A stretch of DNA of 19,638 bases from a virus. How positions within the stretch are numbered: position 1 is the stretch's first letter; every line of letters begins with the position of its first letter. Made by a program: the position numbers. Positions 6,001 through 15,000 of this stretch are shown one piece after another. The stretch lies in UHGV virus genome UHGV-0058544; one strand, written 5' to 3'.

Positions 6001-9000
6001 CATGGGAGAACGCACAGATCCCAACCAATTTTGGCGGCATTCGCGCACTGATGTCTAATGGGCTTGCCTCTCGTACGCAGGGGGCATTTGGCGAAACACT
6101 GACAGTCAAAACACAGCCAACTGTTACCTATAACGCAGTTAAAGACTCATACCAGTTCACTGTAACATTGACCGGAGCGACAGCCAGCGTTACAGGTTTT
6201 CTGAAAGCTGGTGATCAGGTTAAATTCACCAATACCTACTGGCTGCAACAGCAGACCAAACAGGCGTTGTATAACGGAGTCACACCAATTAGCTTCACTG
6301 CAACGGTTACTGCTGATGCTAATTCAGACAGCAGTGGCGATGTGACGGTTACGCTTTCTGGTGTTCCGATTTATGACACTACAAACCCGCAGTACAACTC
6401 TGTAAGTCGTCAGGTAGAGGCAGGCGATGCCGTATCTGTAGTAGGCACTGCTAGCCAGACAATGAAGCCAAACCTGTTCTATAACAAGTTCTTCTGTGGA
6501 CTTGGCTCTATCCCACTGCCGAAACTGCACAGTATTGATTCTGCTGTTGCAACATATGAAGGTTTCTCCATCCGCGTACATAAATACGCAGATGGCGATG
6601 CCAACGTGCAAAAAATGCGCTTCGACTTACTGCCTGCATATGTGTGCTTTAACCCTCACATGGGCGGTCAGTTCTTCGGTAATCCGTAATAACAAGGGGC
6701 TTACGCCCCTTTTATGTTTTAAGGAAACAATATGGATCGGATGAGTGTATTCCTTGCCGCAGATAACGAATCCGGGCATGTACAGGCCGTTATCGCAGAA
6801 AAAGACTTCCAGTTTTTCGAAAGGTTGGGCTTTGTTGCCTCAGTTGATGAATTGAAACCGACCAGTAAGCGAGGTCGTAAGGCGGCGGACAATGGCAACA
6901 GTACTGACAAAGGGTGAGATCGTCCTTTTTGCGCTTCGTAAGTTTGCTATTGCTTCTAATGCATCGCTTACTGATGTTGAGCCGCAATCAATTGAAGATG
7001 GTGTAAATGATCTGGAAGATATGATGTCCGAGTGGATGATTAACCCCGGCGACATTGGTTACGCTTTCGCAACTGGAGATGAGCAGCCATTACCAGATGA
7101 TGAGTCAGGTCTTCCAAGAAAATACAAACACGCAGTAGGCTATCAGTTATTGCTGAGAATGCTATCTGATTACAGCCTTGAACCAACTCCGCAAGTTCTC
7201 AGTAACGCCCAACGCTCATATGATGCCTTGATGACCGACACTCTGGTTGTTCCTTCAATGCGACGACGTGGAGATTTTCCTGTAGGGCAGGGTAATAAAT
7301 ATGACGTGTTCACATCTGACCGATATTATCCAGGCGATCTCCCTCTGATTGATGGCGATATCCCAAACGCATAGGTGAATAAATGCCTATTCAGCAACTT
7401 CCGCTTATGAAAGGTGTCGGCAAAGACTTTAGAAACGCCGACTATATCGACTATCTGCCAGTGAATATGTTGGCTACACCCAAAGAAATCCTGAACAGCA
7501 GCGGATATCTTCGCTCATTCCCGGGCATTGCCAAACGCTCTGATGTAAACGGCGTATCGCGCGGAGTTGAGTACAACATGGCGCAGAGTGCTGTTTATCG
7601 CGTGTGTGGCGGCAAGCTGTACAAAGGAGAAAGTGAAGTCGGTGATGTTGCCGGAAGTGGTCGCGTATCAATGGCGCATGGTAGAACATCACAGGCGGTA
7701 GGCGTTAATGGTCAACTGGTCGAATACCGCTATGATGGCACGGTTAAAACCGTCTCAAACTGGCCTACAGACAGCGGATTCACGCAGTATGAGTTAGGTT
7801 CAGTCCGCGACATTACACGCTTACGTGGGCGTTATGCGTGGTCAAAAGACGGTACTGATTCATGGTTTATCACTGACCCTGAAGACGAATCGCATCCTGA
7901 CCGTTACAGCGCACAATATCGCGCAGAATCGCAGCCGGACGGCATCATCGGTATCGGCACATGGCGAGACTTCATCGTCTGCTTTGGTTCATCAACGATT
8001 GAATATTTCTCCCTGACTGGTGCAACCACCGTTGGTGCGGCTTTGTATGTCGCACAGCCATCGCTGATGGTGCAGAAAGGTATTGCCGGAACTTACTGCA
8101 AAACGCCGTTTGCTGATTCCTATGCGTTCATCAGCAATCCGGCAACAGGTGCGCCGTCTGTGTATATCATCGGCTCCGGTCAGGTGTCACCAATCGCCAG
8201 CGCGAGCATTGAGAAAATCCTCCGCTCCTACACTGCTGATGAACTGGCTGATGGTGTGATGGAATCGCTGCGGTTTGATGCTCATGAGTTGCTGATTATT
8301 CACCTGCCGCGCCATGTTCTTGTTTACGACGCATCTTCAAGCGCCAATGGTCCACAATGGTGTGTGCTGAAAACGGGCCTGTATGACGATGTGTACCGCG
8401 CTATCGACTTCATTTACGAAGGCAATCAGATAACGTGCGGCGATAAGCTGGAGTCCGTGACCGGGAAATTGCAGTTCGATATCAGCAGTCAGTACGACAA
8501 GCAACAGGAACATATTTTATATTCTCCTTTAATAAAGGCAGATAACGTTTTAATAAATGACCTTGAATTAGAAACATCTGGCGGCGTGTGTGATAGAATA
8601 GATAGAATATTTATATCAGCAACTACAGATGGAATTAATTACGGTCGTGAGCAAATGGTCGTATTACAAAAACCATTTGTATATGACAATCGCGTTTTAT
8701 GGCGAAAAGTTGGTCGAGTTAGACGCCTCATTGGATTTAAATTCAGAGTTATTGCAAAAGGTCCTGTTACATTATCAGGCCTTTCTATTCGTGTAACATA
8801 AATCGAAACTAAAGGAGTAGATATGTTGAGTGAAAACGCAAAAGATATTCCTGGATATGAAGGTTTATATGCCGTAACAGAGGATGGGCGAGTATATTCT
8901 CACTCACGTGTTGTTAAGGCTGCGCATGGCAGCACGCAACTCAGAAAGGGTCGGTGGCTAAAACAACACGAGAATAATAAAGGTTATCTATATTTGCCAC

Positions 9001-12000: not shown

Positions 12001-15000
12001 ATGTTTTGTCTCTTAACTCACAGATAGCAGCGACGGGAATTGATCCTCTAACCGGTAAAGCTGCAACGTCAGCCAGAATGTCTCAGGCTAAGAGATGGCT
12101 TGATGGCAACAATAATTACAACAATGCGTTGATTACTGGTGAGCGAGGGATAGAGAAAATTGATTCTTTGCTTGGTAAGAAGGAGCTTGAAGGTATCGGT
12201 CGCTTCGAAGGAAGAAATATAGATGGCTTCACAAGTGCTGAAGGGCTTGCAAACCGTAATGCGATAGAAGAATTAAAGTCGGGTGCGTTTGTCCAGAACG
12301 TGCAGACTATGCGAGGTATGGGTAGCCTCTCCAATGCTGAAGGCCAAAAACTGGAAAACCTGATCGCGAAACTCGATATAACACAGCCTGAAGAGGTCGT
12401 CAGAAAACAGTTATCTGAAATCCGATCGCAATATTCTGTATTTCAAAAGGTTGCAGCAAGGGAGGCTGAATCAATGGGATATAGTTCATCAGGTTATGAC
12501 ACATATGTTAGTGAGCGAAAATCAGGAAGCGACAGCAATAAGTCCGGTTTCTCGTCTTTATGGGGTGATTAATGGCTAAAGCATGGAAAGATGTTATCGC
12601 TTCTCCACAGTATCAGGCGTTAACTGAAGAACAGAAAGCACAGGCTCAAGCGCAATATTTTGATGAGGTTGTTGCCCCTAAGGCTGGTGACAAATGGGCT
12701 GAAGCAAGAGATCAGTTTTATGCAGCATACCCTCCGCATCAGCAGCAGAAAGAAGAACCATCATTGATGCAACAAGCTGGCGATTGGCTCACAGGTGGTC
12801 AAAGTGCAGGGCAAATTGCAGAACAGGCTGGTCGTGGTCTGGTAAACATACCATTTGACGTATTGCAGGGTGGCGCAAGTCTGATTAATGCAATCAGCCA
12901 GGGGCTTGGTGGCCCCAAGGTTTTGGATGATGTTTATCGCCCTGTCGATCGACCTACAGACCCTTACGCGCAAGCCGGTGAAACAATTGGTGGGTATCTC
13001 CTGCCAATTGGCACAGCGGCAAAAGCTGCTGGAGCGCCAGCAAAGCTCGCTGGAGATATCGGTTCCGCAGGAAACATGATTGCAGGTTCTCTTGCTGATG
13101 CTGCAAATCAGGATGGAGACTTTGCACAAAATGCTGCCATTAACGGTGGTATCAATATTGGTGCTCAAGGCGTTCTTTCAGGTGTCGGGCGCGTTATTGC
13201 GCCAAGGGTTTCACAGGCTCTTGGTGGTGCAGCACTGAATTCTGCTAATGATGTTTCCAGGATGGCAAAGTCAGGTGCTGGGCGTCGGTCAATTGCCAGT
13301 CAGGCCGCTAATGTGTCCGAAGATGTAGCAAAAGCGGCTGAGTCTGCTGGAATTGATATAAACGCATTAACACCAGGAATGCGATCTGGAAGTCGTGGAA
13401 TTGCACAAGCTGAAGGCGCATTGGCATCAACACCAGGAATTGTTCAGGACGCCCATCAGGCAGCATTTAACGAAATATCATCAAAGTTAAGTCGAAACCT
13501 TGATGAATTTGGGGCCGCATCTGGAACGGCATCAGAAAAAAGTGCGGCTATAAAACAAAGGATTCTTCAAAATCTTGATCAGATGAAGGATGCCGAGCGC
13601 GCGGCATGGGATGACGTGCGGTCAACAATGCCAAATCAAAAAGCAAGAATGCTAAATGGTAATGCCGTTATTCAGGCAGAGCGATCTGCTGGCATACCAC
13701 TTACTCCTGAAATGAAACAGTTTGTTCAGGCAAACAATCAAGGTGGAGTAACATTTGATGGCATGAAAGCATGGAGAGCGAAATTTGCTGATGCGGAGCA
13801 AAAATATAAGCGTAGCGGAGAGGCAAATGCGGCAAGGAGAGCAGGGGAAATACGCCGGGCAATTACTGATGATATGCGCACAATGGCGGAAAACGGCGGA
13901 TTTCTTGATGACTGGCAGAAAGCTAATGATCTGTCTAAAGCGAGGTTATCAGCACAAGAGAGTGCAGAGTCTGTTTTCGGGCGTGATTTGGCAACAGATG
14001 CACTGATTACGAATGGAGTAAAATCCCTTCAATCATCGTCAGCTAAAGGTCTTAATGGTCCTGCTGGGTTCCATTCTATGATCCGCGCGCTGCCAGAATC
14101 AGAGCGTGTTCCTGCTATATCATCAATGTTGCAGGATGCTATCTCGCATGGTGTACGTGGTGGCAAAGCTGATGCAGCAGGAATTAACCATATCGCAGGG
14201 ATACTTACCCCACAAAATGTAAAAGCCATTAGCAGATATTCCTCAGATCTCGGAAGAATTGCTGATGCATATGGCACTCTTGCAAGAGCGGCAGTGAAAC
14301 CTCAGCAGTATATTGAAAGAACAGGGAGAACTGCCAATGTACTACGCGATCTGGATGCTGGTTTATCCAACGTCACATCAACAGTGTTAAATGCAATTGC
14401 CAACTCAACATCAGGTGCCATTGTTGGTGGCGCTGGAGGGGGTATTGCAGGCGCTGCCGCGGGTGCTTTAGTTGGCGCCGGGTTAAAAGGTGCTGTATCT
14501 AAAATTGCCACCACGCGTAGCGGTCGATATGCGATAGAGAAAGCAGTTCAGGAAGCCACGAAAGCAGTAAGAGCTGGCGGAAGTAAAGAAGCATTAGCGG
14601 CGGCGGAACGCAGATTTATGGCAAATAAAGCCGCCGTAAAAGCAATACGTGATGCAGTTGGAAACGAAGAGTTCAATCGCTTAGCGAGGGCTGGCATTGT
14701 AGCGTCGCTAAGCGGAATAGCACAGGAGTAATTAATCATCCATGGATGGATTGAGCTTATCTCGTGTTGATGTGGCGATTTGTCCTACATTCCTAAGCCA
14801 AGATTTCAAATCCTTGATATTGTCATTGATTTCATGAATATCTTCTTTTTTTAGTCTGTTAATATTATTCTCAATAATTTCAATGGATTGCTCAATATCA
14901 GATATAGTGAATGATAGTTTGTTCTTCTCATCTTTTATTGAGCTTTTAAGTGCTTCGTTCTCAGTCTTGAGGTCAGATATCTTTTGTTTTAAAGATGCCA

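Follow-up and report, generated by a model that had tools for sequence, protein, structure and literature searches.

Why should a prophage that has lost the genes for head assembly still carry a complete set of tail and ejection-protein genes? This question is raised by the UHGV virus genome UHGV-0058544, a stretch of 19,638 nucleotides (nt; hereafter the window), which covers almost the entire length of a defective P22-like (Lederbergvirus) prophage of 20,257 bp. The prophage sits in the chromosome of an E. coli recovered in a human-gut metagenome, where ybhC and ybhB flank the lambda attachment site that it occupies, and the genes in question, gp4 to gp16, lie at 6892-14731. Two explanations had been offered for this block in an original prediction made from the sequence; either the deletion is recent and has left no time for decay, or the genes are kept by selection, for example by complementing or recombining with P22-like phages that share or enter the host. 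The analysis described here partly supports that interpretation. The locus is very probably an ordinary leftover of a P22-like prophage, formed in a gut E. coli by a young, private and neutral deletion, and gp4-gp16 most likely look intact since there has been too little time for them to decay.

Anatomy of the remnant and its deletion junction

The lambda att core GCTTTTTTATACTAA is found on both sides of the prophage, 39 nt left of the window start and at window-equivalent positions 20204-20218, and the chromosomal order is ybhJ-ybhC, prophage, ybhB-bioA-uvrB. On a longer scaffold carrying the same locus, ybhJ and ybhC are seen to the left of int, and a 105-aa open reading frame (ORF) followed by ybhB, bioA, bioBFCD and uvrB to the right of the tailspike gene. 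The host flanks are 99.9% and 98.4% identical to those of E. coli Ec40743. The interval between the att cores is devoid of genes for terminase, portal, scaffold, lysis, replication, Q and repressor and of a complete coat gene, and the absence of terminase, portal and scaffold that had been pointed out within the window thus holds for the entire prophage. Integration between attL and attR together with the loss of genes for the virion and for lytic growth makes the element a textbook defective prophage, and judging from the missing genes it would be unable to yield infectious particles on induction. In DNA comparison with phages, it is a mosaic of HK620-, CUS-3- and Huey-like segments.

One illegitimate, blunt deletion made this remnant. 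In a three-way alignment of the window with a parent carrying the Rad52-like gene and a parent carrying the coat gene, the sequence left of 5828, which covers ssb and the 3′-end of the recombinase gene, is 99.8% identical to strain EC05 (Rad52/Rad22 family), and the right partner begins at nucleotide 411 of the HK620 coat gene. The junction shows a microhomology of 0-1 nt, and no insertion sequence (IS), repeat or k-mer common to the two parents was found at the breakpoint. A deletion mediated by an IS or by microhomology was ruled out by this blunt junction without IS sequence. Both partners remain in their native orientation, and the event was therefore a simple internal deletion, of ~18-21 kb as judged from the maps of HK620, CUS-3 and Huey. 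It removed most of the recombinase gene, kil, cIII, N, pL, the repressor gene, cro and cII on the early side; O and P for replication, the nin region, Q, and pR′ with qut in the middle; and holin, lysozyme, Rz, both terminase subunits, portal, scaffold and the first 137 coat codons on the late side. The loss of the coat 5′-end and of the head-assembly genes had thus been recognized correctly, but its extent had been understated, for immunity, N, replication, nin, Q, late-promoter and lysis functions went with them. The junction also created a chimeric ORF of 107 aa (5652-5975, minus strand), of which the N-terminal 49 residues are antisense to coat and are followed by the final 58 residues of the recombinase, the C-terminal 59 matching the end of the Erf-like profile; this exact sequence was not found in the protein collection.

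The junction appears to be private. A 28-mer across it (ATTTGTTCGCAGTTAGCCCCAATACTCC) and a 20-mer, searched by exact matching only, gave no match in genome_contigs (185,579 species representatives), metagenome_contigs or viral_contigs. The same deletion had also been suggested as something to look for in related strains; by megablast the junction is spanned in none of 5,426 complete E. coli genomes, in hundreds of which the left and right halves match separately. Exact look-ups of gp10, the truncated coat protein and the tailspike led to an ENA scaffold (ERZ28597110 scaffold_113, 140,590 bp, sample SAMEA2338690) and to a Logan contig (ERR414307_13261, 17,572 bp, run ERR414307), both 100% identical to the window over the overlap. 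The truncated coat product is encoded only on three to four large contigs and the Logan contig, always in the same neighbourhood. All junction-bearing records checked are sequence-identical and appear to trace to one gut metagenome, and no conservation across a host lineage is seen. This is a unique and recent event without conservation, the very outcome that the original prediction had named as speaking against selection.

That every record appears to come from a single metagenome data set, and not from an isolate, is what could be said for an assembly artefact, in which two segments of an intact prophage would have been fused into a chimera. The ENA scaffold and the Logan contig are, however, different assemblies with the same junction, a graph assembler would need junction-spanning reads because the parents have no repeat or k-mer in common at the breakpoint, and attL and attR frame the remnant neatly on a long contig of chromosomal sequence. 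An artefact is therefore extremely improbable. The features of the prophage are listed in Table 1.

Table 1. Features of the defective prophage, in window coordinates
Feature	Position	Strand	Evidence
Lambda-type tyrosine integrase, intact, 356 aa	50-1120	-	PF00589 and Arm-DNA-bind_1 domain
Excisionase, 72 aa	1098-1316	-	PF07825, E = 7.6e-41
Early-left accessory genes: DUF4752, DUF551, two Ead/Ea22-like, phrog_614	within 1624-5168	-	family scans
Abc2 anti-RecBCD	4379-4675	-	family scans
Endonuclease-like gene	4689-5168	-	family scans
Phage SSB gene, intact, 157 aa	5178-5651	-	99-99.8% identical to annotated E. coli prophage ssb genes
3′ stub of Rad52/Erf-like recombinase gene, 176 of 708 nt	5652-5827	-	EC05 alignment; phrog_1097 positions 193-251 only
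Deletion junction	5827/5828		three-way alignment of window, Rad52 parent and coat parent
Coat gene (gene 5), 3′ two-thirds	5828-6689	+	PF11651 positions 138-423 only; 98.6% aa identity to HK620
Intrinsic terminator after coat, tGP5 homologue, retained	6694-6720	+	stem-loop and T run; annotated in HK620
hkbT-like small ORF, 61 aa	6732-6917	+	98.4% identical to HK620 hkbT; exact protein on at least 1000 contigs
gp4 tail adaptor, intact, 160 aa	6892-7374	+	PF11650 full length; 99.4% to HK620; exact protein on at least 1000 contigs
gp10, intact, 472 aa	7383-8801	+	PF11134 full length; best identity 91.9%
NUMOD4/HNH endonuclease	8823-9368	+	PF07463, PF13392; exact protein on at least 1000 contigs
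gp26 tail needle, intact, 233 aa	9361-10062	+	phrog_1219 full length; 95.3% to CUS-3
gp14, intact, 151 aa	10062-10517	+	PF11039 full length; 99.3% to HK620 and CUS-3; exact protein on at least 1000 contigs
gp7 ejection protein, intact, 230 aa	10520-11212	+	PF25688 positions 1-230 of 230; 97.8% to HK620
gp20 ejection protein, intact, 449 aa	11223-12572	+	PF16928 full length; same amino-acid sequence as HK620 AAK28901.1
gp16 ejection protein, intact, 719 aa	12572-14731	+	phrog_770 full length; 98.7% to CUS-3
Three small ORFs, 107, 111 and 121 aa	14732-15770	-	phrog_5962, phrog_6324, phrog_4293; weak holin-/spanin-like matches
mnt	15767-16018	-	immI region
arc	~16124-16264	+	Arc Pfam annotation on identical contig
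ant	16363-17286	+	P22_AR Pfam annotation on identical contig; 98% identical to CUS-3 Ant
Tailspike (gene 9), intact, 707 aa	17465-19588	+	PF09008 residues 1-113, E = 3.3e-66; phrog_18162 residues 135-703

Integrity, expression and age of the tail and ejection genes

The seven genes gp4, gp10, gp26, gp14, gp7, gp20 and gp16 are full-length, uninterrupted ORFs, as had been claimed. Shine-Dalgarno-like motifs precede most of their starts, and the translational coupling proposed for them agrees with intergenic junctions of -8 to +21 nt and with ATGA-type overlaps at gp26/gp14 and gp20/gp16. The gene list given for the block needs the hkbT-like and HNH endonuclease ORFs added to it, and the gp26 start, originally put at 9355, is most likely 9361, as called in intact relatives. 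In tblastn, the alignment of every named gene to its homologue in HK620 or CUS-3 covers the full length and shows no frameshift, and the exact gp10 protein is encoded in the full-length prophages L004, L006 and L008. The gene order 5-4-10-26-14-7-20-16-(immI)-9 is canonical and colinear with HK620 and CUS-3 except for the HNH ORF. With full-length gp4, gp10, gp26, gp14, gp7, gp20 and gp16, this order, and a tailspike head-binding domain of the P22 type, the set is a classic example of the tail and ejection module of P22-like phages. It resembles those of HK620, CUS-3, Sf6 and Huey in gene content, order and tight spacing, with protein identities of 92-100% to HK620 or CUS-3. The remnant differs from HK620-type phages in lacking everything from the recombinase gene through coat nucleotide 410, from HK620 and CUS-3 in the extra HNH endonuclease between gp10 and gp26, and also in its integrase, which is of the lambda type in place of the IntS type of HK620, and in the receptor-binding domain of its tailspike.

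On the HK620 map, the late operon is transcribed from pR′ with antitermination by Q, and a terminator, tGP5, follows the coat gene. Q, pR′ and qut all fall inside the deleted interval, and the terminator is retained (6694-6711). Over 4500-7196, a consensus scan of the plus strand yielded no sigma-70-like promoter site, and the region scored 21 promoter-like sites, fewer than the mean of 26.9 in shuffled sequence. Thus gp4-gp16 are most probably silent, since their only known promoter and antiterminator have been lost and they stand behind a retained terminator. Q acts only in cis, at its own promoter, and therefore a superinfecting phage would probably be unable to switch gp4-gp16 on. Complementation of such a phage by donated tail or ejection proteins would thus be unlikely.

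Signs of domestication were looked for in conservation, regulation and gene content, and none was found there. The structural genes have no promoter or regulator of their own, as judged by the consensus scan only, and the set is not self-sufficient for a particle, with portal, scaffold and complete coat absent. The tail of P22 assembles on the portal vertex of the filled head, and gp4 binds the portal. A tailocin-like function was considered and ruled out on two grounds, namely the dependence of the P22 tail on the portal vertex and the lack of a promoter.

The ratio of non-synonymous to synonymous substitution rates (dN/dS), whose determination had been recommended together with the original prediction, was calculated pairwise by the Nei-Gojobori method between the genes of the remnant and those of intact phages. 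The values of 0-0.25 equal those of intact-versus-intact controls, with no excess of non-synonymous changes. For example, gp10 differs from its counterparts in L004 and L006 by 64-69 synonymous and no non-synonymous substitutions, gp20 from that of HK620 by 12 and none, and gp16 from that of L006 by 26 and five. Because dN/dS matches the intact controls, essentially all of this divergence arose while the genes worked in phages, and no evolution since the deletion can be detected.

How much decay should then be expected after the deletion? In the 7,263 coding bases for tail and ejection proteins, 4.2% of random substitutions are nonsense, and indels were assumed to add 10%. Under these conditions, a 50% chance of a disabling hit is reached only after ~4.5-16 mutations, or 0.06-0.22% divergence, which at E. 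coli mutation rates takes thousands of years or more. Intactness is also what neutrality leads one to expect. Of the two alternatives offered at the outset, a recent deletion is supported by the private junction, by proteins identical to intact-phage copies and by dN/dS values like those between intact phages. Selection is probably not what maintains the tail and ejection genes in this lineage, and their integrity would be explained by an evolutionarily young deletion.

Independent remnants and the case for selection

Other remnants for comparison were found through the 90% cluster of truncated coat proteins, which introduces an ascertainment bias. This cluster, to which the truncated coat protein of the window belongs, holds many coat fragments of 296 aa. 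These ORFs were considered as possible carriers of the same deletion and proved otherwise; some result from ISEc52 joined to coat nucleotide 116 or 289, others from an IS21 insertion, from point disruptions, or from a separate Shigella remnant. A clustering of endpoints in the 5′-third of coat, as a sign of a hotspot or of selection, was rejected as a product of the same bias.

A separate family of P22-like remnants associated with ISEc52 resides at the same att-lambda site. Its members include E. coli Ec40743 (L018 11269-25160), PM22, JNE170426 (L020 8863-26076), E. coli 907357 and the loci L013-L017 and L021. Ec40743, PM22 and 907357 as well as many metagenome contigs share the order truncated int, ISEc52, coat from nucleotide 116, hkbT, gp4-gp16, mnt, tailspike and acyltransferase. 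JNE170426 represents an earlier stage, in which portal, scaffold and full coat still lie beside the IS, and in contig L017 the IS is joined at coat nucleotide 289. ISEc52 is eroding this prophage stepwise from the left by nested deletions. The family is like the remnant in the window in its site, in the 3′-end of the integrase gene (98.4% identical) and in the block from truncated coat through hkbT and gp4 to gp10 (97.2% identical), and the same tail and ejection set survives in it without terminase and mostly also without portal or scaffold. It differs in several respects. Its deletion was an independent event mediated by the IS and runs from int to coat nucleotide 116 or 289 (in JNE170426, to a point upstream of portal). 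The family has lost the early-left genes as well, carries other alleles of the needle, gp20, gp16 and tailspike together with an acyltransferase gene, and shows visible decay.

Over 11-14 kb, copies of the ISEc52 family are separated by only 0-3 bases. Within the remnant, two of the substitutions are nonsense (gp14 G25* and gp20 R246*) and the other two missense (gp20 P343A and acyltransferase M150I), and the lack of synonymous changes (0 of 4) has a probability of 0.003 under omega = 0.1 and of 0.34 under neutrality. The gp14 G25* allele (L017 and L020) is present on 117 contigs, gp20 R246* occurs in L014, and the exact tailspike of the family is on 201 contigs. The ISEc52 family thus shows relaxed constraint on its tail and ejection genes. 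Among its three tail and ejection substitutions two are nonsense (P = 0.005 under neutrality); this excess could be due to chance, mutational bias or selection for inactivation.

A third independent remnant is found in Shigella boydii ATCC 9905 (L022/L023 8970-20891) at the locus on the dsdC/torI side. It consists of an IS, truncated coat, gp4-gp14, gp7 split by an IS, gp20, gp16, mnt and IS3, and has no tailspike gene. Tail and ejection genes without head genes are a recurrent stage of prophage decay, and they are unprotected once the phage is dead. E. coli GPEC79-13-647 (L030), whose compact match had suggested another remnant, was rejected, as its late and early regions are both complete and are arranged in a phage-like permutation or in tandem, unlike a simple prophage. 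The order in L030 1-32487 is late genes, truncated tailspike, IS3, a peptidase-G2 tailspike-like gene, intS, torI, early-left genes, N and cI/cro.

Selection on the block could act if it served as a reservoir of modules, from which P22-like phages would capture gp4-gp16 or the tailspike by recombination to the benefit of the phage lineage or the host. Indeed, the block offers 7.8 kb at 90-100% identity to circulating P22-like phages, temperate phages take DNA from defective prophages through divergence-tolerant Rad52-like recombinases (PMC3945230), and the ejection gene sets 7/20/16 of HK620, CUS-3, Sf6 and L function in P22 and alter its sensitivity to SieA exclusion (PMC10883804). Marker rescue by recombination from this locus is accordingly plausible, as it is for defective prophages in general. 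However, the ability to recombine is common to any homologous DNA and implies no selection for retention, and a benefit to phages selects nothing in the host chromosome. Furthermore, the junction is private to the lineage in one metagenome, and the sister remnants gain nonsense alleles at high frequency and no synonymous changes. Retention of the block as a reservoir is thus quite unlikely. The original alternative of genes kept by selection, through complementation or module donation, finds no support, and complementation in particular is disfavoured by the loss of Q, the late promoter and qut, by the retained terminator and by the decay of the sister remnants.

Alternatively, the right arm may be kept for a gene that benefits the host, such as the small ORFs right of gp16, Mnt/Arc/Ant, the tailspike, or in the sister family the O-antigen acyltransferase, with gp4-gp16 merely hitch-hiking. 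At least three independent remnants keep the segment from truncated coat to tailspike with adjacent accessory genes, an intact acyltransferase gene lies next to the tailspike gene in ~200 contigs of the sister family, and the interval from gene 16 to mnt of P22 encodes exclusion functions expressed by the prophage (PMC10883804). The shared architecture is, however, partly an ascertainment bias of the truncated-coat cluster, and the small ORFs have no assigned function. Moreover, a host benefit would explain the retention of the locus but not the intactness of gp4-gp16, and the genes of the sister family are decaying. This explanation is unlikely. A combined version, in which such remnants recur or persist as an allele library for P22-like phages (SieA escape or O-antigen switch), or in which low-level expression of ejection proteins or small ORFs protects the host, and in which the intactness of gp4-gp16 would then be maintained, is very unlikely.

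Several points weigh against a young, private and neutral deletion. First, the proposed silence of gp4-gp16 was deduced from consensus scans and from the known elements that were lost. Second, absence from databases is not absence from nature, and draft E. coli assemblies were reached through exact-protein look-ups only. Third, the variants of gp7, gp16, gp26, Ant and tailspike are private, standing 2-13 residues from the nearest sampled proteins; alleles specific to the remnant include gp7 R18/S193 and tailspike G70/D600. These variants could be unsampled phage diversity or changes after the deletion. Fourth, no near-identical intact parent was found, the best relative of 6892-14731 among complete genomes being ~97% identical and mosaic, and therefore the age of the deletion is not directly measurable and substitutions on this lineage cannot be polarized. 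Finally, the same right arm is kept by at least three independent remnants, in a sample biased by the truncated-coat cluster, which could hint at selection on something there.

A young neutral deletion nevertheless remains the preferred explanation. A single blunt deletion of ~18-21 kb joined the 3′-end of the recombinase gene, in the early-left operon, to coat nucleotide 411, and the survivors are whatever lay outside the breakpoints, namely int, xis and the early-left genes on one side and truncated coat, gp4-gp16, immI and tailspike on the other. The anatomy, the junction, its restricted distribution, the lack of surplus non-synonymous changes and the decay of the sister remnants were observed directly, and transcriptional silence and neutrality in this lineage are inferred. 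The likely fate of gp4-gp16 is stepwise decay as in the comparable remnants.

Accessory genes and meaning for prophage decay

The early-left accessory genes would be without a promoter because pL was deleted, as inferred from the HK620 map. Both att cores (L010 4038; L011 12740) as well as int and xis are intact, with pL and cII deleted, and the remnant might be excised if Int of the same specificity and Xis were supplied in trans by another phage.

Within the tail block, the HNH gene between gp10 and gp26 forms a patch of low GC (0.395) and occupies the same site in intact prophages. Its exact protein is encoded also in full-length prophages, and near-identical copies are present in Salmonella and Klebsiella aerogenes. 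The 3′-end of gp10, after ~8512 (8513-8801), has no match at the DNA level to HK620, CUS-3 or Huey, and a different gene, HNH_3, is located at the gp10/gp26 site of locus L028. This gap looks like a hotspot for homing endonucleases.

To the right of gp16, the three small ORFs occupy the position of P22 sieA and could, from their location, be exclusion or accessory genes expressed by the prophage. Mnt, Arc and Ant are all intact though the repressor of the prophage itself has been lost, and the antirepressor, if expressed, might in principle target the repressors of other lambdoid prophages in the cell. The tailspike is modular; its head-binding domain (residues 1-113) is ~91-93% identical to those of HK620 and CUS-3, whereas the receptor-binding part, from ~17935, is unrelated to theirs and has a GC content of 0.37. 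Both E. coli and Escherichia ruysiae harbour close relatives of the same length (707 aa), and there are relatives of 766 aa as well.

DLP12, Rac and Qin are the classical defective lambdoid prophages of E. coli K-12. The remnant is like them in being integrated, in its large internal deletion, in the loss of replication, packaging and lysis, in the retention of integrase and tail genes, and in being able in principle to pass DNA to infecting phages by recombination (PMC3945230). Unlike them, it is much younger, has neither point-mutational decay nor IS, retains intact att cores, int and xis, and is not fixed in any sampled host lineage. More generally, large surveys are reported to find that incomplete prophages lose mainly genes for replication, packaging and release and are enriched in tail-fibre and integrase genes (PMC7744054).

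By itself, the locus matters little; it is a snapshot of the first step of prophage decay, datable in principle, in which one blunt deletion has disarmed the phage in immunity, replication, lysis and packaging, and point-mutational damage has not yet begun. Together with the ISEc52 family, it forms a natural series from intact prophage through one-step remnant and nested IS deletions to nonsense alleles. For the prediction and annotation of prophages, such blocks should not be taken as signs of a functional phage or of domestication. The series illustrates that intact-looking structural genes in a prophage remnant need no selective explanation.

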